Source of the DNA: a virus
Taxonomy: Duplodnaviria; Heunggongvirae; Uroviricota; Caudoviricetes; Crassvirales
IMG/VR virus record: IMGVR_UViG_3300042691_023995
Location: 64,001-87,603 of that record
Reading direction: 5' to 3' (one strand)
Length of the DNA stretch: 23,603 nt
The notes beneath the pieces are model-generated. The model had not been told where the DNA came from, ran no database searches, and worked only from the letters and a program-made list of their open reading frames with translations. Below, piece after piece: positions 331-22,760 of this stretch (its first letter is position 1; each line of letters starts with the position of its first letter). The position numbers and the translations under genes are program-made.

Positions 331-349
331 AAAACAATAGGTATATTTG
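318..349 (+). promoter_or_regulatory. Bacteroidota primary-sigma promoter: TTTG(318-321)-N20-TATATTTG(342-349)
   Basis: Exact match to the -33 TTTG and -7 TAnnTTTG consensus with 20-nt spacing, directly before the GT cluster. Confidence 0.7.
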
Positions 350-352
350 CCT

Positions 353-1012
353 ATGCGTAAAGTTCTCATAGGTACACCCTCATATGATGGGAGAATAGAT
401 GTCTGGTATGCTAATAGCTTACTGGGCACTGTTAAAATGGCTTATGAGAAGGATATATATGTCCATGCTATTTACACAAGCTATGATAGCCTCATACAAA
501 GGGCTAGAAATAGCCTGTTTAAACTAGCTCTTACAGGTGGATATGATGATTTGTTCTTTATAGACTCAGATGCTGAATGGGAACCAGAATGGTTCTTCAG
601 GCTTTTGGAAAGACCAGAACCTATTGTAGGAGGGGCATTGGTTAAGAAGAGTGATGATAACGAGGGGTACACAGTGAAACTGATGGATAAAAACCTGAAG
701 TGGTCCAAGGATAAGAAGATAATAGAGGTGGATGGTGTAGGTACAGGCTTCCTAAAGGTGAACAGGTTTGCTCTGGAGAAACTATGGGAGATGTCTGATA
801 AGTATACATCTGAGGGTGAGGAGCACAGAATGATATGTGATATAAAGGTGGAGAACGGTGACCTAATATCTGAAGACTACATCCTCTGTAACAAGTGGAA
901 ATCATTAGGATATAAGGTGTGGCTAGATCCAACTATAACACTCAACCACATAGGAACTAGGAAATACAAGGGTGATTTCCAATCCTTTATAAAGAAACAC
1001 GGGTATGTTTGA
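353..1012 (+). CDS. GT-A fold glycosyltransferase-like protein (phage GT2-like family)
   Basis: KVLIGTPSY, SLIQRARN, LFFIDSD (DxD), VGTGF, SEDY..C, and a C-terminal LNHIG. ATG at 353 is preferred over the TTG at 347, which lies inside the -7 box. Confidence 0.75.
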   Translation: MRKVLIGTPSYDGRIDVWYANSLLGTVKMAYEKDIYVHAIYTSYDSLIQRARNSLFKLALTGGYDDLFFIDSDAEWEPEWFFRLLERPEPIVGGALVKKSDDNEGYTVKLMDKNLKWSKDKKIIEVDGVGTGFLKVNRFALEKLWEMSDKYTSEGEEHRMICDIKVENGDLISEDYILCNKWKSLGYKVWLDPTITLNHIGTRKYKGDFQSFIKKHGYV

Positions 1013-1916
1013 TAAACCAATGGGAGGTACAGAGCTTATGTATAATGAGCTCATGAAGAGATTACCAGAAGAATATAAGGACAAGTGGTCCATATTTAAC
1101 TACATAGGAGATGCTGATTTTAAAAAGCCAACCATCTATTGGAACCAGCTAAGCTATGATCAACAGGCTGTACAATGGCTAAGAGATCCTAAGAACATTG
1201 AAGCTATTGATCAGTTTGTATTTATAAGTCACTGGCAATCAGAATGTTATAGAAAACTATTCAATATTCCTGGATACAAAACTTCTGTTATAAAGAATGC
1301 TTGTATTGGTGTAGAACCACGTAAACCAGGAGAAAGAGAAATAGTGAGGCTTTGTTATACATCCACACCCTTCAGAGGACTTGATGTTCTTCTAAAGGCA
1401 TGGGACATACTTAAGCCTAAGGGATGTGAGCTACATGTTTTCTCTAGCTGTAAAATATATGGAGAAGACTATGCTTCCACAGAAGATCCTAAATATACAG
1501 ACTTGTACAACGCCTGTCTAAACACAGAGGGTATTGTGTACAGAGGATCTATTCCTAATGAGGAGCTGAGGAAAGAACTTCCCAGCTTTGACATCCTAGC
1601 CTATCCCTGTACATTTGAGGAAACCTCTTGTATAGCTGTGATAGAAGCTCTGTCAGCTGGACTAAAGGTAGTGACAAGTAATATAGGCGCTCTACCTGAA
1701 ACTACAGAAGGATGGGCTACCATATATCCCTACCTAATGGATAAGGATAGACATGCTGAAGCATTTGCCTCCATCCTCAAGAAGGAAATAGATGCTGTCA
1801 AAACTGGCATGCATCTAGAGGAACAAGTGAACATATATGCTCCTAGATGGAGCTGGGACAACAGAATAAACCAATGGACAAACTATTTAGACACATTAAC
1901 CCCAAGAGAGCCCTAG
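1005..1916 (+). CDS. GT4-family (GT-B) glycosyltransferase
   Basis: PMGGTEL N-terminal loop, YTSTPFRGL, ILAYPCTFEETSCIAVIEALSAG (E-x7-E), TSNIGALPE. Confidence 0.85.
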   Translation: MFDKPMGGTELMYNELMKRLPEEYKDKWSIFNYIGDADFKKPTIYWNQLSYDQQAVQWLRDPKNIEAIDQFVFISHWQSECYRKLFNIPGYKTSVIKNACIGVEPRKPGEREIVRLCYTSTPFRGLDVLLKAWDILKPKGCELHVFSSCKIYGEDYASTEDPKYTDLYNACLNTEGIVYRGSIPNEELRKELPSFDILAYPCTFEETSCIAVIEALSAGLKVVTSNIGALPETTEGWATIYPYLMDKDRHAEAFASILKKEIDAVKTGMHLEEQVNIYAPRWSWDNRINQWTNYLDTLTPREP

Positions 1917-2476
1917 ACATAGGAGCACATGTGGGCAACTTCACAAAGGAACTCTATTACAGATTTCCTGAGTGTAGAGTGGTTATGATAGAGGCTAACA
2001 AGAACTGTGAGCCCCATCTAAGACTATTGGGAAAGCCCTATGAGATTGTAGCTCTGTCTGATAAAAATGGAACAGCTGAGCTCTATATGGAGGATGGCAA
2101 TCCCATAGGTACAGGTAGTTCCTTGTATAGGGAGAACACGCAGTGGTATACACAGGGTAAAACCCAGACAGTGGTGACAAAGCGTCTAGATGATTGTAAC
2201 TATTTCAATGGAGAACACCCTGATTTCATCAAGATGGATGTGCAGGGTTCTGAATTAGACATAATAAAAGGTGGTGAGAATACAATAAAAAATGCTACCT
2301 TTGTGTTAATGGAAACCTCTCTGTTAGAATATAACCAGGGAGCTCCTTTGATAGATGCATTAGTGGAGAAAATGGTGGACCTCCAGTTCTGCATGATTGA
2401 CATTGTTGAATACCACCGCTTAGAAAACGGACTTATTTTTCAACTAGATATATTATTTAAAAACTTAAAACAATAA
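1874..2476 (+). CDS. FkbM-family SAM-dependent methyltransferase
   Basis: ALDIGAHVG (motif I), VVMIEAN, DFIKMDVQGSELDIIKGG. ATG at 1874 (MDKLFRH) is preferred over 1847 and overlaps the GT4 end by 43 nt. Confidence 0.88.
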   Translation: MDKLFRHINPKRALDIGAHVGNFTKELYYRFPECRVVMIEANKNCEPHLRLLGKPYEIVALSDKNGTAELYMEDGNPIGTGSSLYRENTQWYTQGKTQTVVTKRLDDCNYFNGEHPDFIKMDVQGSELDIIKGGENTIKNATFVLMETSLLEYNQGAPLIDALVEKMVDLQFCMIDIVEYHRLENGLIFQLDILFKNLKQ

Positions 2477-2482
2477 GAAGCC

Positions 2483-2833
2483 ATGAAAATGCTTTTTGCA
2501 AAGATTAATCCCGTTGCTGAAATTCCTGAAATGGAATCTCCTTTCCAGTATGATGTTAAACAAGCTGACTATCTTACAGCTGTAGCATCTCCTTATCGCT
2601 TGGGTGCTGAAGAAGTGAACTTTAGCCTCATCTATGGCACTGCTACATTTGATGCTGAAGGAAACATGGAAACATTTACACGCTTATTGGGTGGATCGCT
2701 TACATTAGGTGCTCCTTACATTCAGCAGTGGGGATTGGATGATTCTGTAATTCTTGGAACTATTTGTGAGCAAGTGGGAACAGAAGCTGTTGAATTCATT
2801 GAGGGTGACCCAAAGAACTTCAACCCATTCTAA
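2483..2833 (+). CDS. Hypothetical acidic protein, possibly virion/tail-associated
   Basis: 116-aa ORF with an A-rich leader (aaaaacttaaaacaataagaagccATG). No recognisable motif. Confidence 0.6.
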   Translation: MKMLFAKINPVAEIPEMESPFQYDVKQADYLTAVASPYRLGAEEVNFSLIYGTATFDAEGNMETFTRLLGGSLTLGAPYIQQWGLDDSVILGTICEQVGTEAVEFIEGDPKNFNPF

Positions 2834-2858
2834 TTGAACATTAAAACCAACAAACATA

Positions 2859-3680
2859 ATGGTCAAAAAGATATTCTACAACAGCTCTCTACCTAGAGCT
2901 GGAAGTACACTTATTCAGAATATTCTAGCACAGAATCCAGAGATACATTCCACTCCCACCTCTGGCATCTTTGAGATGTACATGCAAGCTCGTACCTATT
3001 TCTCTAATGGGTTAGAGTTTAAGGCACAAGATCAAAATCTCATGGAAGCAGGGTTTAAGGGAATGCTTAAAGATGGACTCTATGGATTCTATAATGCTGT
3101 AACAGACCGTCCATATGTGATGGAAAAGTCTAGGGGTTGGGCAATGGAGCGTGATTTTATTCATGCCTTTGATCCCAACCCCAAGATTATTTGTATGATA
3201 AGGGACATTCGTGCTATCTATTCTTCTCTAGAAAAGAAGTATAGAAACAATCCTTTAGTGGACACAAACATTGCTAACTGGGGTAATCTAACAGGCACCA
3301 CCACAGATAAGCGTATGGTGGTGTGGTCCAACAACCCTCCTATAGGTCCATCTCTGGACCGTTTGTATCAGACACTTGTAGCTGGTACACATCAACACAT
3401 CCTATTTATTAAATTTGAAGAGCTATGCCTAGATCCTGATACACAACTAAGACGTGTGTATGAGTATTTAGAGCTTCCCTATTTTCAGCATGATTTCAAA
3501 AACATACCACAGTATTCTATAGAGGATGACAAATGGTATGGTATATTTGGTGACCACATCATCCGTGGAGAGTTAAAGCCTGTAAAAGATGACTTCCGTG
3601 AGGTGCTCGGTCCTAATGCATGCAAGATAATAGAGGAAGGCTACCCATGGTTCTTCAATGATTTTGGATATAAAATATAA
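2859..3680 (+). CDS. PAPS-dependent sulfotransferase
   Basis: 5'-PSB loop SSLPRAGSTL, EKSRGW, 3'-PB motif IICMIRDIRAIYSSL, FIKFEELCLDP, VYEYLEL. Confidence 0.88.
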   Translation: MVKKIFYNSSLPRAGSTLIQNILAQNPEIHSTPTSGIFEMYMQARTYFSNGLEFKAQDQNLMEAGFKGMLKDGLYGFYNAVTDRPYVMEKSRGWAMERDFIHAFDPNPKIICMIRDIRAIYSSLEKKYRNNPLVDTNIANWGNLTGTTTDKRMVVWSNNPPIGPSLDRLYQTLVAGTHQHILFIKFEELCLDPDTQLRRVYEYLELPYFQHDFKNIPQYSIEDDKWYGIFGDHIIRGELKPVKDDFREVLGPNACKIIEEGYPWFFNDFGYKI

Positions 3681-3684
3681 ACCA

Positions 3685-4638
3685 ATGAACGTAGGATATA
3701 AGACAGAAGAGGAATTGCAAAAGGATGAGAAGCTGACAGTGTTAGAAGATCGTTCTTCAGACAGCAATAAGTATGTTGTATGGCATATAGAAGGTGGGCT
3801 GGGAAAGAACATAGCAGCTACATCCATTATAAAGGATGTGAAGGAAAGATATTCAGATAGGAAACTCATCATGGTGGTGTCCTATCCTGAGATATTCCTA
3901 AACAACCCTAACATACACAGGGTGTACAGGGTGGGCATGACCTCCTATTTCTATGATGACTACATCAAGGATAAGGACACTATTATATTCCGTCATGAAC
4001 CTTATTTCCAGAGTGATCACATCCTAAAGAAGAAACATCTGATACACAACTGGTGTGATTTGATGGATGTAGAATACAAAGATCAACTTCCTCAGTTTCA
4101 TCCTAACGCTGTGCAGAAAATGTTACAATACAACTGGCAGAGAGAAAAACCTGTCATGGTGATACAGACAAATGGAGGAGGTATGGGTAATGAGTTCTCT
4201 TATGCTTGGTCAAGAGATATGCCTTATGAAATAGCTGTTGCTGTTGCTGATAGATATAGAAACACCCATCATATTATACAGGTGACAAGACCTAACACCA
4301 ATCTTATTCCTAATGTGGAATATGTCACCCAACAGCTTAGCAACTTTGAAATGTTGTCTATTCTAGCTGTTTCTCAGAAGCGTGTGTTAATAGATTCCTT
4401 CTTACAGCATGCTGCTGCAGGTATGGGACTTCCTTCTACGGTGCTATGGATAGGCACATCTCCTATCAACTTTGGATACAAGATGCACAACAACATTGTT
4501 GCTAAAGATCCTCCAGGCAGCACTAAGCTTATAGACAGCTACATCTTTGACTATTCACTTGAAGGGTCAATTCATGAGTGTCCATATAACAGCGTAGAAG
4601 AAATGTTTGACATTAACACCATCTTTAAGAGTATATGA
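3685..4638 (+). CDS. GT9-like (heptosyltransferase-type, GT-B) glycosyltransferase
   Basis: HIEGGLGKNIAAT, YPEIFLNNPNI, LIDSFLQHAAAGMGLPSTVLW, FGYKMHNNI. ATG at 3685 follows the upstream stop at 3680; the track start at 3658 overlaps that gene. Confidence 0.72.
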   Translation: MNVGYKTEEELQKDEKLTVLEDRSSDSNKYVVWHIEGGLGKNIAATSIIKDVKERYSDRKLIMVVSYPEIFLNNPNIHRVYRVGMTSYFYDDYIKDKDTIIFRHEPYFQSDHILKKKHLIHNWCDLMDVEYKDQLPQFHPNAVQKMLQYNWQREKPVMVIQTNGGGMGNEFSYAWSRDMPYEIAVAVADRYRNTHHIIQVTRPNTNLIPNVEYVTQQLSNFEMLSILAVSQKRVLIDSFLQHAAAGMGLPSTVLWIGTSPINFGYKMHNNIVAKDPPGSTKLIDSYIFDYSLEGSIHECPYNSVEEMFDINTIFKSI

Positions 4639-5093
4639 TTATAGTTCTTTTTGGACAGCCACACAGTGGCAAGTCCACAATAGCTAATGAAATCCTAGCA
4701 CACACTACATCCTTTGTAAACATAGATGGGGATAAGCTCAGAGAGCTGTTTGTTAATAAAGACTACTCTAGAGAGGGTAGAATAAAGAACCTGAACAGGG
4801 CTAGTGATATTGCTCACTTCCTAAACTCTACAGGGACAAACGTCATCCTCTCTCTTGTCTATCCTTATAAGGAAGCCAGAGACTATCTCAATAACCTTAC
4901 AAAGGATGTCATATGGGTGTATTTAACATACACAGGAGAAAGAGGAAGAGAGGGTTTTCATGTACAAGATTTTGACTATCCTGTAGAAGAAGATGTTTTG
5001 AATATTAACACATCTTCTGTATCTTTGGAATATTGTATGCAAATTATAAACAACTACATAGATGCAAAACGTTCTAGCAAAAGCAGCAAGTAA
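4635..5093 (+). CDS. cysC: Adenylylsulfate (APS) kinase
   Basis: P-loop LFGQPHSGKST, IDGDKLR, DYSREGRIKN, VILSLVYPY. ATGA coupling to the upstream gene. Confidence 0.8.
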   Translation: MIIVLFGQPHSGKSTIANEILAHTTSFVNIDGDKLRELFVNKDYSREGRIKNLNRASDIAHFLNSTGTNVILSLVYPYKEARDYLNNLTKDVIWVYLTYTGERGREGFHVQDFDYPVEEDVLNINTSSVSLEYCMQIINNYIDAKRSSKSSK

Positions 5094-5448
5094 GTCAGGA
5101 CAATGGGCCATGTTTATTGGAAGATGGCAACCTTGGCATGCTGGTCACAGATGGTTAATTGATCAAGCCCTTAACGAGGGTAAGAAGGTGTTGCTCTGTA
5201 TAAGAGAAGTGGAACCAGATGAAAAGAATCCCTGGACACCACATCAGGTTATGATGACACTTGCTAATGAATTGAATGGCCTTATACAAGAGGGCAAGTT
5301 GAGGATAATGACCATCCCTGATATTGAATCTATTAACATTGGTAGAGGTGTGGGTTATGATGTTATAGAACATGTTCCTCCTGCAGAAATACATGATATA
5401 TCTGCTACAAAGATTAGAGAGAATATGAAAAGGGAGGGTAGATTATGA
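5062..5448 (+). CDS. Small HxGH nucleotidyltransferase (cytidylyltransferase-like fold)
   Basis: FIGRWQPWHAGH, KNPWT, ISATKIR (KMSKS-equivalent). Confidence 0.8.
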   Translation: MQNVLAKAASKSGQWAMFIGRWQPWHAGHRWLIDQALNEGKKVLLCIREVEPDEKNPWTPHQVMMTLANELNGLIQEGKLRIMTIPDIESINIGRGVGYDVIEHVPPAEIHDISATKIRENMKREGRL

Positions 5449-5669
5449 TAGTAGAAAGAAAACGACACATAGCTAAGACTATAAGCTACCGTCTTATTAG
5501 CACACTGATTGGTGTACTCACTATGTTTATTGTAACAGGATCTATGAAAGCAGGCGCTGCATTTGGTGTAGCTGAGCTGTTATGGAAACCCATACAATAC
5601 TACATCCACGAACGTATATGGTATAAGTGGATTAGATATGGCCTAAAAGGGCAAAAACAACCTGACTAG
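5445..5669 (+). CDS. DUF2061-like small membrane protein
   Basis: RHIAKTISYRL, two hydrophobic segments, YYIHERIW. ATGA-coupled to the nucleotidyltransferase. Confidence 0.75.
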   Translation: MIVERKRHIAKTISYRLISTLIGVLTMFIVTGSMKAGAAFGVAELLWKPIQYYIHERIWYKWIRYGLKGQKQPD

Positions 5670-8600
5670 CATCTATCTTCTGGTGGCATTCAAACTGCCT
5701 ATCTGTTCCCTTGTGTTCAGGACACCAGTTCCAATCTCCTGGGTCAAACCTATATTCAGCCTTGTTCCAGCATCCGTGGCATACATTCTTGTTGTCAATC
5801 CTGATGCATTCAAACTCATGATCTGCTTCTGTGAAGTTGCTTATCATCATCACCTTCTTGTTAAGAGCCCAGGCTAACCAGCTAAGTCCGCTGGACAGTC
5901 CTATGAATATCTTACTGTGATGGATGACATTCATAGTGTTCTCTATGGATGTATCCTCTATCTGTTCGCAGTGATCAAAAGGATTCTTCTCCTTAGATAC
6001 ATTTATCACCTTGTATCCTTTCTCATGCAGGAAGTCAATCACTAATTGCCAGCCTTCTTTGGTCCAGAACTTACAGCCTGATGTAGAGTTGGTGGCTATT
6101 GTAACATATTTACCATATAAATTGTTACCAATTTGGTAACTGATTCTTGGTTTAATCTCTTGGTAATCAAGACCTAATATGTTACTTGCTGCTTTCTGGA
6201 GGGGGATGGTGTTACAAAGCTCAGGCTCCTTGTCTGGATTGTAAAACCAACCTATGCTATACATACCAAGGATGCCCTCAGCCTTCTGACCAGGTTCAAT
6301 AAACTCAAGCTCTGGATAGACATCTTTGAAGAGGAAGTTCTTGAACGTGCTCACTATCACATGGCAGTTGTGCTTCTTCTTAAACTCTAATACATATGGC
6401 ATCCAGGCTATAGTATCTCCTAATGACTTGCTGTCAAACGCTATGTACACACGCTTACCTGTATAGTCTAGGGTGTATTCGTAATAAGGCTCTTCATCTT
6501 TCCATATCTTAATGGTCCACTTAGTATACCACCTCCTATTGAGCTTAACCCAGTTCTGGACACCTATTGTGTTTCTGTAATGACACACACCCTCCTCATC
6601 GAGATATTCCACTCTAAACTTGCTCTTGGACCTTCCCTTGATTTCAAGGAACGGTTCTAATATAAAATTGTGATCAATTGTCACATGTTCATCAGATTGT
6701 ACAACATCTTGTACAACTTTCTGATAGATGGCAAGATGTGTAAGAGCAAACTCAAGCTCCTGATTCTCAGGGATATCGTATTTCTTTGGATTGCTCAGCT
6801 GCTCATACACTTGTTCCTTCAGCTTAGCTGGGTCCAAATCGGTAATATATTTCGTAAACATGTCTCCATATTGAGGAAGATTCCTGGCAATGATGGGTAG
6901 ACCATGGCCTATTGCTTCTCTAATCACCAGAGGATTACACTCAAATGTGCTGTTGAACAGGAACAAATCAGCTCCTGCCATGAAATCAGCTACATCATTA
7001 CGCTCTCCCAATACATGTACATTAGGAGGAAGATCTTTCATCAGGGGCTCCCAGTAGTGCTGGAAGTTACCAGCTTGGTTACCTACAAAGTGAAACTGTA
7101 CATCTGGCATCTGTCTAGCTAGCTCTACAGCTTCTCCTTGGTTCTTGCCAGGAGTCCACAGTCCTACATTCAGAACATGTTTCCCTTGTCCAAAATGTAC
7201 AGGTGTAGCCTCCTTCTTCTCAATAGGATGTTCCACTACATACTTAGGAGAAGGCATGTTTGCAAATGTCTTCAGATGATGTGGTGTGCAGAACATGTAG
7301 CTATCTGGATGAAAGCGCTTCTCAATGTCTGGCTTGAATATAATGTTGTGACATGTCTCAATCATCCTCCAGGTTCTGTTTGGAGCATACAAAGCTTCTC
7401 TCAGGGATTCTGGCCAGTTGTTCCAGCCATCTTCTACCATCTCTTCCACATGTACAACATCAATCCTATTATTCCTGATGATGTCTATCAGCTCCATCTT
7501 GTTCTCTCCCAGTGTCCAGAAGTGACTCACCAGCTTTTTTATCTGGTCTTTCTGTACAACAAAGTGATCGCTGTGATTGGAGTATTCCACAACATAGATG
7601 TCTACATTGGTGTGCGCTTGCAAAGCCTGAATTCTTCTCAAGAGGAAGGCAGGCATTCCGCCTGTGGATAGATGTGGTGCCACAAACAACACTCGTAAAT
7701 GTTCCTTCTGACGCTCAACCATCTTACGCATTACATCCTTGTTCTTTTCCCCGTGGTAGAATAATAAATCATCTACTGAAGCTGGTGTAGCTAGAAAATG
7801 ACCTATATGTTTCTTGTACCCAGCAAACTCCACATTGTTCACCCTGTCCAAAGATCCATTCATGTATATGTAAGGAAGTCCTTTTAGGTAGCTATGCTTC
7901 CACAGAAGCACATTTGCTATTGTTTCCTCGTGGTATGGAGCATAATATTGTGGATTCTGCAGAATCTTTGGATGGTTGCACATCCAAATCCACTCATCTA
8001 GAAAGTCTATGCACCACTGTCCAGCTACAAAGTATCCTGTCTGTCTGTATTTATCTCGTACATATTGGTTTACACCAAACAACTCACAGGCTGGATGTTC
8101 AAGCGTGGTGGATAGGTCATCTCTACTCTCAGCCCCACCTCTGCCATTGTTAATCATCCACTCGTATATCCCTTCTGTGAAATATGGATAGGGGGATTTA
8201 GCTGGGAATAGGTCAAACATCCTGTCTACATATCTGGTGGCCACACTGTCAGCATCTACATATACCACTGTCTTAGCAAGACTGAGCGCATCTTTAACAA
8301 TAGCTGGACGCTGTATTAAGATTTTATATATGTCACTGCTAGCCCTGTCAATATACTCACCCTGAGCAGGGTTCTCAACATCACATTCCCAGTTGATAGT
8401 GATGGCTCCTGGTACATCTGCATTTGAGTTAAGAAGGTAGACAAATATGGCAACATTGCTATGTACTCTAATAGAAGCTACACATCCCTCGATGGTATCA
8501 CGGTAGCTCTCAGTTCCATATATGACATAAGCCCTATTCAACCTGGGGTCCTCGTTAACGTAATACCCATACCAATCATTGGTGTACAGAGGAACAAGTC

Positions 8601-9051
8601 CTGGGTAGCGCTCTTTCATTACATCTGGAGTGAGATCTGGCTGAAGATGGGTTTCGTAGGTGTTCCCATATTCCTCCCCATCCTGTTCCATAGTGTAGGG
8701 GATGGCCACAAGAAAGTGCTTACCGTGGAAATGCATAGCATTTATAAGACGCTTAGCATCTTCTTTTCCTAGGTGTTCTAGGACATCTCCCAGTATAATG
8801 AAGTCATAATCTGTCCAGTTAAACTCAACGATGTTCTCAATGTAAACATTGTCATATTTATTTCTCAGGCTAAATTGGTCTACATAGGGAGCCCACACCT
8901 CTACAGCATCCATCCTATATCCTAAATTCCTTAGCAAATCTGAATAAGTGCCCTGCCCAGGACCTACATCTAGGATACGTGTACTAAGGGGAACATTGTC
9001 TATAAACCACTGTTTTATCTCAGACTTGAAATAGGAATAGCTGTTGGGCAT
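5632..9051 (-). CDS. Four-domain enzyme: class I methyltransferase + GT-A + GT4 + autotransporter strand-loop-strand O-heptosyltransferase (TibC/Aah-like)
   Basis: ILDVGPGQG and GDVLEHL (methyltransferase); VVYVDADS (DxD, GT-A); FVAPHLSTGGMP, GKNQ, FECNPLVIREA (GT4); SKSLGDTIAW, FIGLSSGLSWLAWA, VCHGCWN..WCP..QFEC (four Cys typical of the TibC/Aah family). Confidence 0.85.
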   Translation of the reverse strand: MPNSYSYFKSEIKQWFIDNVPLSTRILDVGPGQGTYSDLLRNLGYRMDAVEVWAPYVDQFSLRNKYDNVYIENIVEFNWTDYDFIILGDVLEHLGKEDAKRLINAMHFHGKHFLVAIPYTMEQDGEEYGNTYETHLQPDLTPDVMKERYPGLVPLYTNDWYGYYVNEDPRLNRAYVIYGTESYRDTIEGCVASIRVHSNVAIFVYLLNSNADVPGAITINWECDVENPAQGEYIDRASSDIYKILIQRPAIVKDALSLAKTVVYVDADSVATRYVDRMFDLFPAKSPYPYFTEGIYEWMINNGRGGAESRDDLSTTLEHPACELFGVNQYVRDKYRQTGYFVAGQWCIDFLDEWIWMCNHPKILQNPQYYAPYHEETIANVLLWKHSYLKGLPYIYMNGSLDRVNNVEFAGYKKHIGHFLATPASVDDLLFYHGEKNKDVMRKMVERQKEHLRVLFVAPHLSTGGMPAFLLRRIQALQAHTNVDIYVVEYSNHSDHFVVQKDQIKKLVSHFWTLGENKMELIDIIRNNRIDVVHVEEMVEDGWNNWPESLREALYAPNRTWRMIETCHNIIFKPDIEKRFHPDSYMFCTPHHLKTFANMPSPKYVVEHPIEKKEATPVHFGQGKHVLNVGLWTPGKNQGEAVELARQMPDVQFHFVGNQAGNFQHYWEPLMKDLPPNVHVLGERNDVADFMAGADLFLFNSTFECNPLVIREAIGHGLPIIARNLPQYGDMFTKYITDLDPAKLKEQVYEQLSNPKKYDIPENQELEFALTHLAIYQKVVQDVVQSDEHVTIDHNFILEPFLEIKGRSKSKFRVEYLDEEGVCHYRNTIGVQNWVKLNRRWYTKWTIKIWKDEEPYYEYTLDYTGKRVYIAFDSKSLGDTIAWMPYVLEFKKKHNCHVIVSTFKNFLFKDVYPELEFIEPGQKAEGILGMYSIGWFYNPDKEPELCNTIPLQKAASNILGLDYQEIKPRISYQIGNNLYGKYVTIATNSTSGCKFWTKEGWQLVIDFLHEKGYKVINVSKEKNPFDHCEQIEDTSIENTMNVIHHSKIFIGLSSGLSWLAWALNKKVMMISNFTEADHEFECIRIDNKNVCHGCWNKAEYRFDPGDWNWCPEHKGTDRQFECHQKIDASQVVFALLGHI

Positions 9052-12023: not shown

Positions 12024-12902
12024 ATGCCAATACCCTCAAGACAGATAGGCTGGAGCACGCAGGATAACCTGTTGTGGCAGATTGCTAAACAAATAGAGCA
12101 AGCTGAATGTCAGCTCTGTACGCTTAACGATAACATCCAAACTATCACTGGTACATCTGGTACCAGCGGGTCTAGTGGTATTTCTGGTGCTCCTGGTTCA
12201 TCAGGAACTTCTGGTACTAGTGGTGTAAGCTTATATTACGGATCTTTTATATTTGATCATGCCACTACACTAACCTCAGCCATGAACTCTAACACCACCA
12301 ACCCAATTCAGGTGGTGAGTACAACAGGATTCAGTGCTCCTGGGTATTTAAGAATTAATACAGAGATTATAGCCTATACAGGCATATCTGGAAACACATT
12401 TACAGGCATCACAAGGGGTGTGGCTAGTTCTGGTGGATCTAACCACAGTATTGGTGATGGGGTGGCTCAAGCTCAATATACATCTGCTGGTGTACCTAAA
12501 CAGGTGTTGTTAGATGAAACTGATCTATCAAACGGAGCAGTGTTGAATGTCCTTACAGGAGATGTTACAATTGCTAATTCTGGAGTTTACAACTTACAGT
12601 TTAGTGCTCAGCTTGAAAACTTCAGTAACGATGTTGAAGATGCCATCATCTGGTTTACAGTGAATGGGAACGATGTTCCTAAGTCAGCTAGTTACATAAC
12701 AACTCCCACTATCCATGGAGGTACACCTGGTGCCACCCTCATGACAGTGAACATTTTTTATACAATCACTGGTGGTGATGTAGTGGGTTTGAAATGGACT
12801 AGTAAGAACGGCAAGACAGCCATAACAAGCATACCTCCTGTAGGAAGCACCATACCGCAGTCCCCAGGAGTTATTTTTACAGTAAATAAAATAGGAATAT
12901 AA
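12024..12902 (+). CDS. Fibre-like structural protein: MPIPSR coiled-coil module + Gly-X-Ser repeat + beta-rich C-terminal domains
   Basis: LLWQIAKQIEQAECQLC heptads; Gly at every third residue from 43 to 67; C-terminal VTIANSGVYNLQFSAQL resembling C1q/BclA-type heads. Confidence 0.6.
   Translation: MPIPSRQIGWSTQDNLLWQIAKQIEQAECQLCTLNDNIQTITGTSGTSGSSGISGAPGSSGTSGTSGVSLYYGSFIFDHATTLTSAMNSNTTNPIQVVSTTGFSAPGYLRINTEIIAYTGISGNTFTGITRGVASSGGSNHSIGDGVAQAQYTSAGVPKQVLLDETDLSNGAVLNVLTGDVTIANSGVYNLQFSAQLENFSNDVEDAIIWFTVNGNDVPKSASYITTPTIHGGTPGATLMTVNIFYTITGGDVVGLKWTSKNGKTAITSIPPVGSTIPQSPGVIFTVNKIGI
12150..12224 (+). repeat. Gly-X-Y (mostly G-T/S-S) collagen-like triplet repeat
   Basis: GTS GTS GSS GIS GAP GSS GTS GTS G. 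Confidence 0.85.
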
Positions 12903-13084: not shown

Positions 13085-14101
13085 ATGAAGGATTTAAAGT
13101 ATGTCTGTGTTCAACCAGATGATACCTACTACACATGGCAGGTACACCTTTGGTTGGAGAGCCTTAGAAAGAGAAATGAATCTGACAAGGCTATTGTTCT
13201 GATATTCATCCCCAAAACTAGGGAACAGAACCCTAAGTGGCAGCAAGTGATTGACCTCTATCCTGAGGCAGAGTTTCACTTCTACAAGGATGAACATGAC
13301 GTAAGTCAATTATTAGGAATCTACATCCCTGTTCTGAGACCTTACACCCTCTGGAGACATTGGAAAGAACATCCAGAACTAAGTGATAAAGCTATATTCT
13401 ACTGTGATTCAGACGTCATCTTTACAGAGAAGTTTGATGTTCAACAGTTTATAGACGATGATATATGCTACCTATCTGAAACAACTAGCTACATAAGCGC
13501 TGCGTATTTTGATAGTAAGGTGAGAGATGTCAAGCCTGAGAAACTAGAAGAATACAAGACAAGAGATGTTCTTGCTGAAATAGGCAGTGTAGTTGGTATC
13601 AGCAGGGAGGAAGCAGAAGCTAAGAACAATGATTCTGGTGGAGCTCAATATCTCCTCAAGAACATAGATGCTAAGTTCTGGAGCAAGGTGATGAACGATT
13701 GCATCCTAATTAGGAGCTATCTGCAGAGAATAAACAAAGAGTTCTTTGAGAACGAAAACAAAGGATTCCAAAGCTGGTGCGCTGATATGTGGGCTGTGCT
13801 GTGGAATCTGTGGGTGAGAGAAAAAGAGGTGAAGGTGATTCCTGAAATGGGATTCAGCTGGGCACCAGACCCCATCACTAAACTAGAAACACACCCCATC
13901 CTTCATAATGCAGGAATTGTAGCTACACAAATGGATGGTTACAACTGTTTTTACAAGGGTAAATACCACCTAGGTGTTGATCCTTCAAAAGATGCGCATC
14001 TAGATGCAGTTCTCAATGATGAGAAAGCAAAACCAAGGTGCACATGGTATTACACAAACGAGTTGAAAAACTTATTTAATAAATATAACCTTAACTATTA
14101 A
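13085..14101 (+). CDS. GT-A glycosyltransferase resembling HPAT/SERGT1 peptide O-glycosyltransferases (CAZy GT95/GT96-like)
   Basis: DDTYYTWQ, YIPVLRPY, FYCDSD (DxD), GGAQY, SWCADMWA and ILHNAG appear in the same order as HPAT/SERGT motifs recalled from memory (YxxWQ, YxxxNRP, DxD/EPD, WxxEMY, IxHY). Confidence 0.65.
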   Translation: MKDLKYVCVQPDDTYYTWQVHLWLESLRKRNESDKAIVLIFIPKTREQNPKWQQVIDLYPEAEFHFYKDEHDVSQLLGIYIPVLRPYTLWRHWKEHPELSDKAIFYCDSDVIFTEKFDVQQFIDDDICYLSETTSYISAAYFDSKVRDVKPEKLEEYKTRDVLAEIGSVVGISREEAEAKNNDSGGAQYLLKNIDAKFWSKVMNDCILIRSYLQRINKEFFENENKGFQSWCADMWAVLWNLWVREKEVKVIPEMGFSWAPDPITKLETHPILHNAGIVATQMDGYNCFYKGKYHLGVDPSKDAHLDAVLNDEKAKPRCTWYYTNELKNLFNKYNLNY

Positions 14102-14112
14102 CCCTAATTATT

Positions 14113-14319
14113 ATGGGAAGCATTGACACAAGACCTTTAAAAGCTTATGTCCGTTTCGATGGAAGCGGAAGAATAGTTGCAGGTAGTCTTATACTGAGAA
14201 GAAAGAAGCCCAAGGTTGGTAAGTGGGTAGAAATTCCAGCGTATGAGTGCTGCAATCTTACAACCACGACCACTACAACAGTGGCTCCTACAACAACTAC
14301 TACCACTACACTCATCTAA
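14113..14319 (+). CDS. 68-aa protein: VRFDG..CC module + Thr7-VAP-Thr7 tail
   Basis: LKAYVRFDGSGRIVAGSLILRRKKPKVGKWVEIPAYECC followed by the poly-Thr tail. Confidence 0.85.
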   Translation: MGSIDTRPLKAYVRFDGSGRIVAGSLILRRKKPKVGKWVEIPAYECCNLTTTTTTTVAPTTTTTTTLI

Positions 14320-14330
14320 ACCCTTAACAC

Positions 14331-15125
14331 ATGTTTAATAACAATCAAAGAAAGGGACTGAAGGCTTGGGTTAGATATGACGGTAATAAAAATGCTGTAG
14401 CTGGAAGTCTTATATTCCAAAAAGATAAACCCAAGGTGGGCAATTGGAAGGAATACATGGATGTGAATCTGTGTTGCCCTGCCACACCAAGTGGTGGATA
14501 TGAATGCTGTATTGCCATACAGGGTGTTGCAGAAAGTGAAACTGGATTGTATGGTTTTACAATTGAAACTAGAAACAGTGGACCCAATTTAACAGGAACT
14601 ATCCATTGGACATCTACACAAAGTGAGAGCTTCTCCCTTGTTTCTAACGGGGATGATTATGATTTTGAATACAACTTTGGAGATTCAATCCCTCACACTA
14701 TCTACTTATGTATAGACAATCCTAGTCAAATCTTAGACTTTGAGATTGGGTTTGGTCCTGGTGTGGCTCAGTCAATCTCCAATCTTCAGCAATTAGAAGG
14801 TTTTGGCGAGTGGGATGGTGATGATATGGCATTCACATCTCTAGATTTTACAGGACTCACTTCATTTAATGAATTATATAACATAGATACGGGACTTCAG
14901 CATATAAATATTACAGGTTGTGTAAACTTGGATGCTGTTGAATTAACTGGAAATGCTTTAACACAAGCTTCTGTAGATCATGTTCTTATTACACTTGATA
15001 ATAATGGTTTAACAGGTGGATATCTTGATCTTAGTGGAGGCACTAATTCTGCACCATCTGTTGCAGGATCAGCAGCTGAGGCAAGTCTCTTATTAAAAGC
15101 TTGGAGCGTAAGTGTTAATCCCTAA
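14331..15125 (+). CDS. VRYDG..CC module + acidic beta/LRR-like C-terminal region (putative surface/decoration protein)
   Basis: N-terminus paralogous to 14113. C-terminal LDFTGLTSFNEL, INITGCVNLDAVELTGNALTQASVD has leucine-rich-repeat-like periodicity. Confidence 0.6.
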   Translation: MFNNNQRKGLKAWVRYDGNKNAVAGSLIFQKDKPKVGNWKEYMDVNLCCPATPSGGYECCIAIQGVAESETGLYGFTIETRNSGPNLTGTIHWTSTQSESFSLVSNGDDYDFEYNFGDSIPHTIYLCIDNPSQILDFEIGFGPGVAQSISNLQQLEGFGEWDGDDMAFTSLDFTGLTSFNELYNIDTGLQHINITGCVNLDAVELTGNALTQASVDHVLITLDNNGLTGGYLDLSGGTNSAPSVAGSAAEASLLLKAWSVSVNP

Positions 15126-15137
15126 AATTTAAACATC

Positions 15138-15290
15138 ATGCCAATAAAAAAAGTAACCCCAGAAGAAAAAGCCATCAGAGAAGCTCAAAATAAGAAGGTG
15201 TCTGACTATATAAAAGAAGGTAAAACTGTTGAAGAGGCTAGGGAGCTTGTAAAAGCTGCTAAACAAAAAATTATAAAAAATGGCAAATAG
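15138..15290 (+). CDS. 50-aa charged helical microprotein (not in ORF track)
   Basis: MPIKKVTPEEKAIREAQNKKVSDYIKEGKTVEEARELVKAAKQKIIKNGK; A-rich leader; overlaps the next start. Confidence 0.55.
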   Translation: MPIKKVTPEEKAIREAQNKKVSDYIKEGKTVEEARELVKAAKQKIIKNGK

Positions 15291-15720
15291 AAACGCATTA
15301 CAGGCATACGTTCGTTTTGATGGAACAGGACGTGTGATACCAGGAAGCTTGATTCTCAACAGATTCAAGCCACAGGTGGGAAACTGGAAACAAATTGGTT
15401 CCTATGAATGTTGTGATCCATTCTGTCTTCCTCCAGTGTATGGAGAAGACTACATCATTATAGACGCTGTTGAGGTGGAAGGTGGAATCACTTTCCAAAT
15501 TGCAACTAATCCTTTTATTAGTGGTCTTGTATTGGAAGTTTGTATGGTTGATTGTGATTCAACTCCTCCAGATAGAATTCTTCCTTTGCAGATTGAACTA
15601 ATCCAGGGTAATGAATACAACTACTTTGTTCCTAATGCCATTCTTGACCAGTCATGCGCTCTTGGATTCAGAAGAATCTGTGAAGCTACACAGTCTGGAT
15701 GGTCTCTTTCAGGTGGATAA
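15280..15720 (+). CDS. VRFDG..CC module + Cys-containing acidic C-terminal domain
   Basis: LQAYVRFDGTGRVIPGSLILNRFKPQVGNWKQIGSYECC, the third copy of the module. Confidence 0.7.
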   Translation: MANRNALQAYVRFDGTGRVIPGSLILNRFKPQVGNWKQIGSYECCDPFCLPPVYGEDYIIIDAVEVEGGITFQIATNPFISGLVLEVCMVDCDSTPPDRILPLQIELIQGNEYNYFVPNAILDQSCALGFRRICEATQSGWSLSGG

Positions 15721-15738
15721 TATTAAAAACTTAATACA

Positions 15739-15861
15739 ATGGCAGAACAAGTAAAAACATTGCAGGATTTCTTGAAAGAATATCCTAATGATAAGGCAGA
15801 AGCTGTTAAGCAATATTTAATTTACGTAGGCCGCTTTGGCGGAGAATTTAAAACTAACTAA
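15739..15861 (+). CDS. 40-aa microprotein (not in ORF track)
   Basis: MAEQVKTLQDFLKEYPNDKAEAVKQYLIYVGRFGGEFKTN; TAATG coupling to the next gene; aaaaacttaatacaATG leader. Confidence 0.55.
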   Translation: MAEQVKTLQDFLKEYPNDKAEAVKQYLIYVGRFGGEFKTN

Positions 15862-16280
15862 TGGCAAAGTCACTATTTCCTGAGAAAATGCTAAGCTCGT
15901 CTGGTGGAGAACTTTCTCCAGATGTTGTAGCTACAAAGCTGACACACTTTGAACTTCAGCTACACAATCTACATTGGGCTACAAGAAGCTATGCAGAACA
16001 CCAAGCTCTTGGTGGACTGTATGACAAGGTGTTTGACCTAAAGGATGAGATTGTAGAAAAGATTATGGGCTACACAGGAACTAGAGCTAAGATAGGAGCA
16101 CATGCTCCTTTGAAAGACTATGCTGTTGGTGTATCTGATCAAGTGGTTAGTGAGCTGATTACATTTGCTAAGCAGCTTGAGAGCTACGCAGAGGCTAACA
16201 ATATGCCTGACATTGAGAACATTGCTCAATCCTTGAGTGGAGAAGCAGCCAAAACTAAATACCTACTAACACTGTCCTAA
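15861..16280 (+). CDS. Ferritin/Dps-like four-helix-bundle protein (phage DUF5856-like)
   Basis: LHNLHW..SYAEH..L..LY......DEIVE resembles the Dps ferroxidase HW..H..D..E pattern; ends YLLTLS. Confidence 0.7.
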   Translation: MAKSLFPEKMLSSSGGELSPDVVATKLTHFELQLHNLHWATRSYAEHQALGGLYDKVFDLKDEIVEKIMGYTGTRAKIGAHAPLKDYAVGVSDQVVSELITFAKQLESYAEANNMPDIENIAQSLSGEAAKTKYLLTLS

Positions 16281-19891: not shown

Positions 19892-20524
19892 ATGGTAAAA
19901 CTAACATGTATATGTCCTGTGTGGAAAAGACCACAGAGGACCATTAGAGCAATAGAATCTGTTGTAGCCCAGAAGTTTGATGGCTATGAGGCATTGTTCA
20001 TAGGTGACAGATGTCCAGAGTTTCAAAAACATCTGGACGCTGGTACATTTAAGAAATACGAAGAACAAGTGGCTGCTACAGGTAACAAGATATTATTCCA
20101 TAATATGGATGAACATTATGGGGGCTGGGGACATGGTGCACGTAAGTACGGCATTGATATAGCTCAGGGAGAATACATATGCTTCCTGGACAATGATGAT
20201 GTTCTCAAGCCCAACCATTTTGCTAACTATTATGGATTCATGCAAGAGAACCCAGACATTCATGTAGGTTATTTCAATGCACGTACAGAGCCCTGGAAAA
20301 AGAACAGAGTTTCTTGTCTATCCAGAGGAGGCATTGGAAACGCAGAATTAATGATAAAGACAGATGTTCTTAAGAAGAACTATAGACTAGATCCAGAATA
20401 TGAACATGACTGGAGACTAGTGGAGAGAATGTTAAACTACGGATATAAGTTCAAAAAGAGCACAGCAGCTCCTACATATATAATAATGAGTATTCCTAAC
20501 TATCGAGAAACCACAATTGACTGA
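19892..20524 (+). CDS. GT2-family glycosyltransferase
   Basis: LTCICPVWKR, AIESVVAQ, ARKYG...AQGEYICFLDNDD, HDWRL. Confidence 0.85.
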   Translation: MVKLTCICPVWKRPQRTIRAIESVVAQKFDGYEALFIGDRCPEFQKHLDAGTFKKYEEQVAATGNKILFHNMDEHYGGWGHGARKYGIDIAQGEYICFLDNDDVLKPNHFANYYGFMQENPDIHVGYFNARTEPWKKNRVSCLSRGGIGNAELMIKTDVLKKNYRLDPEYEHDWRLVERMLNYGYKFKKSTAAPTYIIMSIPNYRETTID

Positions 20525-21204
20525 TGATAACGGTTATTATTCCTGCTTACAAAGCAACTAAGTACATAGATGAATGCCTTGCTTCTCTGCCAGGGGCTGA
20601 GATATTGGTAGGAATAGACCGTTGTAAAGAGACATTTGACCACCTGGTGGGTAGAACAGACATAAAGACGTTCTATTTTACAGAGAATGTAGGACCTTAT
20701 GTTATTAAAAACACACTAGTTGATGAGGCTTCTCATGACAAAATCCTATTTTTTGACTCTGATGACATCCTTGTAGAGGGTGTTCTGGATAGGATAGAGA
20801 AGGCTTTAGATAATGTAGACTACGTAAAACTCAACTATATCAACTTCACAGGCAGGATTAATCATAAGGCACACAAGATGAATGATGCTGTAATAGCTAT
20901 CAACCGTCCTGTGTTTAACGAGCTGAATGGTTTTAAACCATGGAGATGTGGAGCTGATACAGAGTTTGCACACCGTTTAGCATTTAACAAACTGAAACAC
21001 ATAGTGCTAGATGATATAGCCTATTACAGAAGAATCCATGGTGAAAATCTCACTGTGAGAAAAGAAACAGGATATGATTCTCCTATAAGAAAAGGATATA
21101 TGGAGTATATTGCAAGGCGTCAAAGAGAAAACAACTGGGTAAATCCAACACATAAACAAACTCAAGGATATGTTACTTATACAACAACCCATCGAGGAGC
21201 TTAA
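20524..21204 (+). CDS. GT2-family glycosyltransferase
   Basis: ITVIIPAY, YIDECLASL, ILFFDSDD, GADTEF, YYRRIH. Confidence 0.85.
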   Translation: MITVIIPAYKATKYIDECLASLPGAEILVGIDRCKETFDHLVGRTDIKTFYFTENVGPYVIKNTLVDEASHDKILFFDSDDILVEGVLDRIEKALDNVDYVKLNYINFTGRINHKAHKMNDAVIAINRPVFNELNGFKPWRCGADTEFAHRLAFNKLKHIVLDDIAYYRRIHGENLTVRKETGYDSPIRKGYMEYIARRQRENNWVNPTHKQTQGYVTYTTTHRGA

Positions 21205-22048
21205 GCTTCCTCCTGAAGTGACAATAGGAACTAGGAAGAGATATTCAACAGCTACAGCTGTGGCGTGGATCAATGACCACAAACTTGTATCAGCTGCTTT
21301 TAACAGCAGAAAGGTATATTTAATAGAGCTCACCGAAGATGGTGGTTCTAGGATATTAGATGTTGTAAAGGCTCCTTACAATCCAGACTTGATGGATTAT
21401 AAAGATGGGGTGATAGTTACATCAGACTATCCTTTCTCCAACCCTGATGGACATGCGTCCATATTTGATGTGGTGGATGATAAGATAGTGTATAGGAAAA
21501 GCATTAAGCTTCCCAGTACAAAAGCTCACGGCTGTAAGATTGTAGACAGTAATACCATCATCATCACTAGTAACAGTGACTTCAACAAGGGGTGTTTGTT
21601 TATAGATGTGAACAAAGGTGTGGTGAAAAGCAATCTAAAAGACATGGACCACTACCCTAAAGATGTTCATATAAAGGATGATAGACTTCTAGTGGTGTGT
21701 GCAAAGAGTCTTCCCCAGATAGGACAAACCACCGTGATAGGTGAATCTGTGCTCTATCTATTCGATGTTGCAACATTAACAAGATTAGATGAGGTGAGAT
21801 TTCATGGGCAAACAGACTCTCTCACCATGGATGGTGAACATGTATTCATCACTATACAAGGAGATGATACTGTTGCAGGGTTTACATTAATTGATGATAA
21901 GCTCTCCTATATTGGTAGAGCTGGTGGGTTTAACTTCCCACATGGTATAGATGCGCTAAATGGTAAAATAGCTGTTACAAACTATGGTGATAACACCATC
22001 AGGATATTCACTAAGGATGAGCTTCTACAAAATCTGCAAGCATCTTAA
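21170..22048 (+). CDS. Beta-propeller protein (lactonase/YncE/NHL-like)
   Basis: Blade-like repeats: YNPDLMD, AHGCKI, HYPKDV, GFNFPHGIDA..KIAVTNYGDNTIRIF. Confidence 0.6.
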   Translation: MLLIQQPIEELKLPPEVTIGTRKRYSTATAVAWINDHKLVSAAFNSRKVYLIELTEDGGSRILDVVKAPYNPDLMDYKDGVIVTSDYPFSNPDGHASIFDVVDDKIVYRKSIKLPSTKAHGCKIVDSNTIIITSNSDFNKGCLFIDVNKGVVKSNLKDMDHYPKDVHIKDDRLLVVCAKSLPQIGQTTVIGESVLYLFDVATLTRLDEVRFHGQTDSLTMDGEHVFITIQGDDTVAGFTLIDDKLSYIGRAGGFNFPHGIDALNGKIAVTNYGDNTIRIFTKDELLQNLQAS

Positions 22049-22760
22049 CATAATCCTTGTTCCAGTGAGGGTTTAATTGCACCTCACCTGTAGGAATCTT
22101 ACCCTGTATTCTAAGGTTTTCTATGTGTAAACTATGCCTTTGGATGGCATTAGGTTTGCCAGGTTTATCATGTCCCTGACCAGACATGTGATAGCTACGT
22201 CCTCCCCACATGTAAAACCAGCTAGCCTCAGCTTTAGGAGGCTTAGCAAACAGTCTTCCACCGTGCTTATGTAGACGTTCTATAAACGTCATATCATATC
22301 CAGCGTTCTCAATGGGGTGGTGCCCTATAGCTTCCCAAGCAGACTTCCTGAACACAATACCTGAGTTACCTATCCAGGTAACATCTGTTATTTTGTCCCC
22401 GTTATAGAACACTCCAGGATTCCAATGGAGAATGTTCACATCATCTGTGAAATATTTAGCTACATTCTGCAAATGCCAAGGCATAGCTAAATCATCATCA
22501 TCCCACTGGCATATAATATCCCCATTACAGATATCTGTTGCGTAGTTTTCTTTCTCACCTATAGTGCTGAAGGTGAAGTTCATATTGTGTATTCTCACTC
22601 TGGGATGGTCAAATCTGAGCTTCTGCAGGGGATAGTCATTCACGATTATCAGTTCACGCCTATCTTCAGGGTAGTCTTGCCTGAGGAAAGACTCTAAGCT
22701 TTCCTCAAGCGTATCCACCCTGCCGTATGTGATCATCTTACATGATATTAGTGGCAGCAT
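22011..22760 (-). CDS. GT2-family glycosyltransferase
   Basis: ISCKMITYGR, SFLRQDY, ELIIVND, ICQWDDDD, GYDMTF. Confidence 0.82.
   Translation of the reverse strand: MLPLISCKMITYGRVDTLEESLESFLRQDYPEDRRELIIVNDYPLQKLRFDHPRVRIHNMNFTFSTIGEKENYATDICNGDIICQWDDDDLAMPWHLQNVAKYFTDDVNILHWNPGVFYNGDKITDVTWIGNSGIVFRKSAWEAIGHHPIENAGYDMTFIERLHKHGGRLFAKPPKAEASWFYMWGGRSYHMSGQGHDKPGKPNAIQRHSLHIENLRIQGKIPTGEVQLNPHWNKDYVKMLADFVEAHP

Follow-up and report, generated by a model that had tools for sequence, protein, structure and literature searches.

RESULTS

A glycosyltransferase-like gene beside a poly-threonine-tailed protein

The 23,603-nucleotide stretch of DNA analysed here (the window) makes up the final 23.6 kb of a phage record of 87.6 kb from IMG/VR (IMGVR_UViG_3300042691_023995), which has a completeness of ~76% and also codes for a terminase, a portal, a major head protein and very large virion proteins. 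We focus on one gene of the window, whose 338-amino-acid (aa) product resembles, in its predicted fold, the hydroxyproline arabinosyltransferases (HPATs) and the serine galactosyltransferase (SGT1) of plants and algae, and which is a candidate for starting glycosylation of the phage particle. It is followed immediately by a gene for a small protein with threonine (Thr) runs.

13085..14101, + strand: HPAT/SGT1-like glycosyltransferase (GT) with a predicted GT-A fold, 338 aa, PHROG 4417; ATG start; DxD motif D108/D110; predicted third metal ligand H274
14113..14319, + strand: 68-aa protein, candidate acceptor, with a conserved 47-aa N-terminal module running straight into two poly-Thr runs; starts 12 nucleotides past the stop of the enzyme gene

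An earlier note on this DNA had rested the likeness to HPAT and SGT1 on five ordered motifs, and these are present in the order described: DDTYYTWQ at residue 12, YIPVLRPY at 80, CDSD at 107, WCADMW at 231 and ILHNAG at 272. The five motifs go beyond chance. In an alignment of the product with 64 relatives (29-47% identity), residues Y80, D108, D110, Y136, F257, H274 and K291 are invariant, and Q229, A276 and G277 are conserved at 90% or more. As D108, D110 and H274 are invariant in all 64 relatives, CDSD represents a conserved DxD motif and the histidine of ILHNAG is conserved alongside it.

The family is large and has gone without a name. With the 338-aa protein as query, one database returned 2,714 relatives at E<=1e-3 and a second one 753 cluster representatives, and the protein matches phrog_4417 over its full length (E 3.5e-53, residues 4-329 against positions 1-290 of a profile of 293), a group annotated as 'unknown function'. 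A tblastn search of a phage collection gave 77 records, in all of which the family gene is labelled hypothetical or lacks an annotation; in a few of these, an adjoining major-tail-protein annotation overlaps the family match. Some members are fused to GT2, DXD-sugar-binding or methyltransferase domains. No membrane segment was found in the 338-aa enzyme (maximum Kyte-Doolittle value over a 19-residue window, 0.66), and we therefore predict that it is soluble and cytoplasmic. A scan for promoters and terminators around the gene was uninformative, with promoter-like sites at chance level and all eight terminator-like sites on the opposite strand.

Predicted fold and nearest structural relatives

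An AlphaFold2 model built with the 64-sequence alignment had a predicted local distance difference test score of 97.5 and a predicted template modelling (TM) score of 0.94, with the fold beginning at residue 4. The best matches among solved structures are retaining GT-A enzymes: a structural search against representatives of the PDB placed LgtC (Z 14.1), the Skp1 alpha-galactosyltransferase (14.1) and glycogenin (13.9) at the top, and further matches were the catalytic domain of UGGT (13.6), WbbM (13.2), GlyE (12.7) and A64R of the chlorovirus PBCV-1 (11.1). Foldseek on the PDB returned enzymes of families GT6, GT24 and GT8 at TM 0.38-0.47. The model combines a GT-A fold (LgtC, glycogenin and UGGT matching at Z 13.6-14.1) with the DxD motif and putative distal histidine ligand of the GT8-like clan, the three residues concerned (D108, D110 and H274) being invariant. 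By sequence, searches against solved structures gave best E values of 1.1 (protein) and 0.022 (family profile), both to unrelated proteins.

No entry of family GT95 (HPAT) or GT96 (SGT1) was found among the solved chains searched, and the likeness to these families was therefore tested on predicted models. Matches 1 to 9 among the models of Swiss-Prot proteins were all GT96 or GT95 enzymes, namely Arabidopsis SGT1 (E 3.2e-10), HPAT2, PLENTY, HPAT1, Chlamydomonas SGT1, RDN1, HPAT3, NOD3 and RDN2, with E values of 3e-10 to 3e-7 and TM scores by query of 0.49-0.63 (0.59-0.63 for eight of the nine). These were followed by GT8, GT24 and related enzymes at TM 0.34-0.49, including the GT8 glycogenin at 0.49 and the GT24 UGGT at 0.42-0.43. 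Among AlphaFold clusters, the family's own members occupied ranks 1-3 (TM 0.76-0.82), an unnamed nucleotide-diphospho-sugar transferase came fourth (TM 0.60, 16% identity) and a run of algal and protist proteins with a 'hydroxyproline O-arabinosyltransferase-like domain' lay beyond it. The ESM Atlas yielded a chlorophyte cluster in which 98% of the members carry the Pfam HPAT domain PF23452 (TM 0.70, with 301 of 338 residues aligned) and a Pseudomonadota cluster with PqqD in which 55% of the members carry it (TM 0.70). Hence, among predicted models, the GT-A fold of the phage protein appears closest to those of HPAT and SGT1.

At the level of sequence, this likeness is far less apparent. Identity to GT95 and GT96 proteins is only 10-14%, the 338-aa protein has no Pfam match even at E<=10, and it stays below the curated cut-off of PF23452 (23.9 bits). 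PF23452 was also unmatched in the phage's own genome and in 10 other phage records with homologues, which is a weak negative, as control genomes were equally silent, and in the ten most divergent relatives scanned. Among the 64 relatives, PF23452 is the Pfam family with the most matches, yet it was found in only two of them (E<=1; best 1.3e-4), and in some Atlas clusters of relatives 10% of the members carry it. For Glyco_transf_8 (GT8), neither the 338-aa protein nor a single one of the 64 relatives gave a match at E<=1. The protein also differs from GT95 and GT96 in that it lacks the hydrophobic segment expected of a membrane enzyme of the secretory pathway, its fold beginning at residue 4, and a search of the 87.6 kb, ~76% of the genome, found no prolyl-hydroxylase-type domain (PF13640).

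The likeness put forward in the earlier note therefore stands at the level of the fold, where GT95 and GT96 outrank GT8 and GT24 among models of reviewed proteins, and fails at the level of sequence, where the Pfam HPAT profile is unmatched. The same note described these families as characterised in plants and algae. The literature still describes HPATs as plant-specific (PMC4738400), but in the databases this no longer holds, since prokaryotic proteins with PF23452 exist, such as the PqqD-fused proteins of Pseudomonadota. HPATs are related to GT8 yet are placed in a family of their own (PMC4908140). On the evidence of the models, we read the phage enzyme as belonging to a sister family of GT95 and GT96 inside the GT8-like GT-A group, rather than as an established member of either.

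Threonine/serine runs cluster around the enzyme gene

The neighbours of the gene were compared across related loci, with open reading frames (ORFs) called per locus and a strict run defined as at least seven serine (Ser) or Thr residues out of eight, including at least four Thr. In 80 loci of close relatives (65-92% identity), strict runs occur in 54% of the ORFs at position -1, 57% at +1 (79 loci) and 43% at +2, in 12-19% at -2, -3 and +3, and in 0-4% from four genes outward. A second, distant clade of 98 loci, fetched with relatives ~35% identical to the 338-aa protein, shows strict runs in 40% of the ORFs at -1, 15% at -2 and 6% at -3, and in 0-2% at all downstream positions and from four genes upstream outward. 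The neighbouring genes of this clade code for large proteins of several domains, with long, mucin-like Thr/Ser linkers between one domain and the next. Prolines are scattered through many Thr tracts, for example in AAP, LPP or VAP spacers.

Because the loci within each clade are kin to one another, we extended the comparison to cultured phages, with 14 loci from about 12 lineages that infect Enterococcus, Lactobacillus, Lactococcus, Staphylococcus, Clostridium, Arcanobacterium and Chryseobacterium. In 11 of the 14, the gene one or two places upstream of the enzyme encodes a protein with a Thr-rich tail, in many cases the major tail or capsid protein; the arrangements include the following.

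phiFL1A: the enzyme gene overlaps the stop of the gene for the major tail protein gp50, which ends in ~25 Thr/Ser residues
Lactococcus phage 1706: the enzyme gene follows the 'major structural protein' orf13, which has a ten-Thr end
Clostridium phage FA88: the enzyme gene follows the poly-Thr-ended ORF18, in the tail-tube position
Enterococcus phage 4995_1: the enzyme gene follows a poly-Thr-ended protein annotated as capsid protein
Lacticaseibacillus phage R9.1: the enzyme gene follows a poly-Thr-ended protein that, by its size and position, is probably the capsid protein
Staphylococcus phage SA2 and Arcanobacterium phage TPWB06: the enzyme gene follows a poly-Thr-ended protein annotated as major tail protein and an overlapping ORF that is nearly all Thr run
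Staphylococcus phage PT1-4: a poly-Thr-ended protein that is probably the tail protein, judging from its near-identical C-terminus, is followed by a Thr-run ORF, one further ORF and then the enzyme gene
Herelleviridae phage Semele: the enzyme gene follows small poly-Thr-tailed proteins
521B and LP65: arranged as in Semele, with looser Thr-rich tails (TTVKP or TTTETQ repeats)
Chryseobacterium phage MA9V-3: internal runs in the ORFs at -1 and -3

In several of these phages, two different structural proteins have the same short ending beyond the Thr run (SHV in R9.1, HHD in 1706, TSQG/TSQV in FA88), which looks like a copied recognition tag; in phiFL1A, two structural proteins are both poly-Thr-ended and have different endings. 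No other annotated glycosyltransferase was present in the siphophage loci examined. The enzyme would therefore have to act directly on protein there, which fits an initiating role.

A short Thr-run ORF overlaps the tail protein in SA2, PT1-4 and TPWB06 (L194 4117-4930, L195 4164-4926, L090 3508-4210), a layout that would fit a frameshift extension of the tail protein.

Bacterial homologues lie in lanthipeptide-type clusters

The earlier note had foreseen that uncharacterised homologues in Bacteroidota might exist. They do: a scan of prokaryotes with one genome per species gave 15 loci, all of them in Bacteroidota. Three are phage-like contigs (62-66% identity), one of which (112 kb) was binned with Sediminibacterium, hinting at a Chitinophagaceae-type host. 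The remaining loci are mostly chromosomal homologues at 26-44% identity, most of them two-domain proteins of 479-829 aa (534-587 aa for those in the cluster loci scanned: L202, L203, L205 and L207-L211). In Sphingobacterium detergens, genes for LanB-type dehydratases and an HlyD-family secretion protein lie upstream of the homologue and a C39-peptidase ABC exporter lies downstream. A LanC-like gene directly follows the homologue in Chitinophaga niastensis, Mucilaginibacter oryzae, Hanamia, Ferruginibacter and Longitalea, with C39-ABC exporters and thioredoxin-like genes nearby. These Bacteroidota chromosomal loci are lanthipeptide-type peptide-maturation clusters, which suggests that glycosylated lanthipeptides may be made in Chitinophaga, Sphingobacterium, Mucilaginibacter and their relatives. 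In the Pseudomonadota proteins mentioned above, the fusion of PqqD, a peptide-binding domain, to an HPAT-type domain resembles another use of the fold in peptide maturation.

The neighbourhood in the phage genome

Around the enzyme, the window holds two paralogues of the 68-aa protein, a tail-fibre-like protein and a large number of genes for glycan enzymes.

1005..1916, + strand: GT4-type glycosyltransferase, putative glycan extender
1847..2476, + strand: FkbM-type methyltransferase, putative glycan decorator
2859..3680, + strand: sulfotransferase, putative glycan decorator
4635..5093, + strand: APS-kinase-like protein, which would supply the sulfate donor 3'-phosphoadenosine 5'-phosphosulfate (PAPS)
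5632..9051, - strand: 1139-aa multidomain protein with a methyltransferase, a GT4-type and then a GT9-type domain, putatively glycan-acting
12024..12902, + strand: 292-aa tail-fibre-like protein with a collagen-like Gly-Ser/Thr repeat at residues 43-67 (Collagen E 1e-3, below the cut-off; tail fibre/baseplate PHROGs E 1e-6 to 1e-8)
14331..15125, + strand: 264-aa paralogue of the 68-aa protein that shares the N-terminal module; its C-terminal domain is longer and finishes in a repetitive, leucine-rich-looking stretch; no strict poly-Thr run and no Pfam family
15280..15720, + strand: 146-aa paralogue that shares the N-terminal module but has another C-terminal domain; no Pfam family
19892..21204, + strand: two adjacent GT2 glycosyltransferase genes (19892-20524 and 20524-21204), putatively linked to the system
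22011..22760, - strand: further GT2 glycosyltransferase

The three paralogues (14113-15720) have 22 invariant columns in common. Their shared 47-aa module has an invariant YECC motif and no Pfam match, and their C-terminal parts are unrelated; the module may anchor exchangeable decoration proteins to the virion. The tail-fibre-like protein is a possible, weaker candidate for a further acceptor. Two proteins encoded elsewhere in the genome, a virion structural protein of 1691 aa and a protein of 278 aa, also contain poly-Thr/Ser runs.

A cytidylyltransferase-like protein and a weak GT2 match (within 347-9051) add to the enzymes listed, and the glycan toolkit of the window (347-9051 and 19892-22760) is unusually large for 23 kb. 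The presence of a phage-encoded kinase together with a sulfotransferase suggests a sulfated glycan.

Three further features of the region were noted. Just past the paralogue cassette, 15861-16280 encodes a DUF5856 / PHROG 858 protein, which carries the PHROGs label 'starvation-inducible transcriptional regulator' (Dps-like). The ORF at 1-330 of the window is the C-terminal end of a 3951-aa protein and holds an endosialidase-chaperone (Peptidase_S74) domain, as in self-cleaving tail fibres. Upstream of the window, positions 35053-64330 of the record contain giant ORFs of 3978 and 3951 aa and others of 1674, 1691, 1057 and 887 aa.

DISCUSSION

Our results suggest, with a probability that we put at about 0.68, that the gene at 13085-14101 encodes a soluble peptidyl Thr/Ser O-glycosyltransferase that starts glycosylation of the virion, so that the phage particles are probably sugar-coated. 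The enzyme would be a soluble, cytoplasmic, metal-dependent GT-A enzyme of the GT8-like class in which, judging from conserved residues and fold, D108, D110 and H274 would hold the nucleotide sugar by its diphosphate together with a divalent metal, as in GT8 enzymes. The donor would presumably be a uridine diphosphate sugar, and retaining chemistry is to be expected by analogy with the nearest families. We envisage that, in the host cytoplasm, the first sugar is placed through a putative O-linkage onto Thr (and Ser) hydroxyls of newly made virion proteins, in poly-Thr/Ser tails or linkers that are exposed and disordered, either ahead of particle assembly or in the course of it. The likely acceptors of this phage would be the 68-aa poly-Thr-tailed protein and the poly-Thr linkers of large virion proteins encoded elsewhere in the genome, while glycan extension and capping may fall to the neighbouring glycosyltransferases, methyltransferases and sulfation enzymes. 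The nearest fold relatives, SGT1 (GT96) and HPAT (GT95), glycosylate peptides, and to the extent that the models are a guide this supports a peptide acceptor. The lanthipeptide clusters of Bacteroidota and the PqqD fusions provide an independent context for an acceptor of this kind.

What the analysis shows is the predicted fold, the conservation of the catalytic motifs, the nearest fold relatives and the genomic association; the acceptor, the O-linked and retaining chemistry, the donor and the part played by the neighbouring enzymes are deduced from it. Several points weigh against this proposal. In the literature searched, we found no report of glycosylated tail or capsid proteins for the carrier phages and no paper linking HPAT-like enzymes to phages. 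The poly-Thr tracts could be mere flexible linkers. A neighbour with a strict poly-Thr run is missing in about half of the close relatives, the locus counts are not phylogenetically independent within either clade, and in two of the cultured phages, bIL285 and Planchet, the Thr-rich tail is on a protein in the tail-tube position that lies a few genes from the enzyme. It is also the case that the fold leaves the acceptor open, because some of the nearest solved structures are those of enzymes acting on glycans and lipo-oligosaccharide.

The last point leads to the alternative that we regard as unlikely but as the most serious, namely, that this is a GT8-like enzyme acting on glycan or lipid, which modifies a surface polysaccharide of the host (lipopolysaccharide, capsule or teichoic acid) or extends an existing glycan. 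The structures concerned are those of LgtC, which acts on lipo-oligosaccharide, and WbbM, which acts on O-antigen; the fusions to GT2 and other sugar-transferase domains within the family and the crowd of other glycan enzymes in the window point the same way. However, this is a soluble enzyme, and the annotations of the loci examined include neither a flippase nor a Gtr-type partner. The siphophage gene stands alone inside the head-tail morphogenesis module, right after a poly-Thr-tailed structural protein, and the bacterial homologues are found in lanthipeptide clusters and not in polysaccharide loci. The predicted models of the peptide-acting GT95 and GT96 enzymes also fit better than those of GT8 (TM 0.59-0.63 for eight of nine versus 0.41-0.49).

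It is also conceivable, if improbable, that the association with poly-Thr is incidental, the enzyme acting instead on DNA, a host protein or a small molecule, and the tracts being no more than linkers of a type common in such phage regions. No direct evidence joins the enzyme to a tract, and many loci have no strict tract beside the gene. Against this, the enrichment is sharply positional, being confined to positions -2 to +2, with other ORFs of the same loci at 0-4%, and it recurs in at least 12 unrelated phage lineages with different genome architectures. DNA modification as such was set aside on context only, as nothing in the gene context points there. Very improbable is a true GT95 or GT96 orthologue with plant-like chemistry, adding arabinofuranose to hydroxyproline or galactose to serine beside hydroxyproline, since, in spite of the top fold matches to these families and the prolines within many Thr tracts, the identity is so low, the Pfam HPAT profile is unmatched in the 338-aa protein and the 10 other phage records, no prolyl 4-hydroxylase-type domain was found in the 87.6 kb, the membrane anchor is missing in contrast to the endoplasmic reticulum/Golgi-localised plant enzymes (PMC4908140), and the conserved feature of the neighbours is Thr runs, not Ser-Pro4.

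A peptide Thr/Ser O-glycosyltransferase of this kind would have partial counterparts in several known systems. GT95 (HPAT1-3, PF23452) and GT96 (SGT1) supply the best fold matches among reviewed proteins as well as the chlorophyte HPAT cluster at TM 0.70; they are likewise GT-A enzymes with a DxD motif and a relationship to GT8 (PMC4908140), and they start glycosylation at hydroxyl side chains of proteins, within segments that are extended and repetitive, as we propose for the phage enzyme. The phage enzyme differs from them in having no membrane anchor or secretory location and in its likely acceptor, which would be Thr as opposed to hydroxyproline (Hyp) or Ser-Hyp4. The solved GT8-class enzymes (LgtC, glycogenin, the Skp1 enzyme and GlyE) and the GT24 UGGT align over 216-247 residues at Z 12.7-14.1 and share the metal site of DxD plus a distal histidine, and four of them, glycogenin, the Skp1 enzyme, UGGT and GlyE (which acts on serine-rich repeat adhesins), act on proteins. 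In contrast to the HPAT models, the solved GT8-class structures align over ~60 fewer residues (239 versus 301), and TM scores in the PDB are lower. With A64R, the chlorovirus PBCV-1 encodes a cytoplasmic GT-A enzyme for glycosylating its own capsid protein. A64R builds an N-linked-type glycan, is far smaller, with 190 residues aligned, belongs to a virus of eukaryotes and is not the nearest relative.

The closest parallel in outcome is found in mycobacteriophages. In a published summary (PMC12363180), glycosyltransferases of these phages (Che8 gp110, Corndog gp38 and Myrna; Freeman et al. 2023) are described as modifying capsid and tail-tube subunits, and this glycosylation of the virion has been shown experimentally and reduces antibody recognition. 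The outcome that we propose is the same, with both capsid and tail proteins as targets. The hosts differ, being Bacillota, Bacteroidota and, for one phage, Arcanobacterium, with no Mycobacterium phage among the 77 tblastn records. The family described here is also distinguished by an explicit poly-Thr tract as putative acceptor tag and by an enzyme gene that usually adjoins the gene for the candidate acceptor: enzyme and candidate tags are both present and are genomically linked.

Taking these observations together, we suggest, with confidence that is evenly balanced, that the enzyme is the founding member of an undescribed and very widespread family of peptide O-glycosyltransferases, sister to the plant GT95 and GT96, with which phages of Bacteroidota, Bacillota and Actinomycetota would add sugar to poly-Thr tags encoded within the genes for capsid, tail and decoration proteins and with which Bacteroidota would glycosylate lanthipeptides. 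If this is true, glycosylated particles would be frequent among phages of Enterococcus, Staphylococcus and lactic acid bacteria and among environmental Bacteroidota phages, well beyond the mycobacteriophages, which would bear on the pharmacology of phage therapy, on the biology of dairy phages and on adhesion to mucus and other surfaces. A poly-Thr tail and one soluble enzyme would constitute a compact enzyme and tag pair for glycosylating proteins in the cytoplasm, and the bacterial loci indicate possible glycosylated lanthipeptides in Bacteroidota. The 'plant-specific' HPAT and SGT1 enzymes would gain relatives in prokaryotes and viruses that lend themselves readily to expression and crystallisation, and these enzymes of the plant cell wall would form part of an ancient lineage of peptide glycosylation that also has prokaryotic and viral branches.

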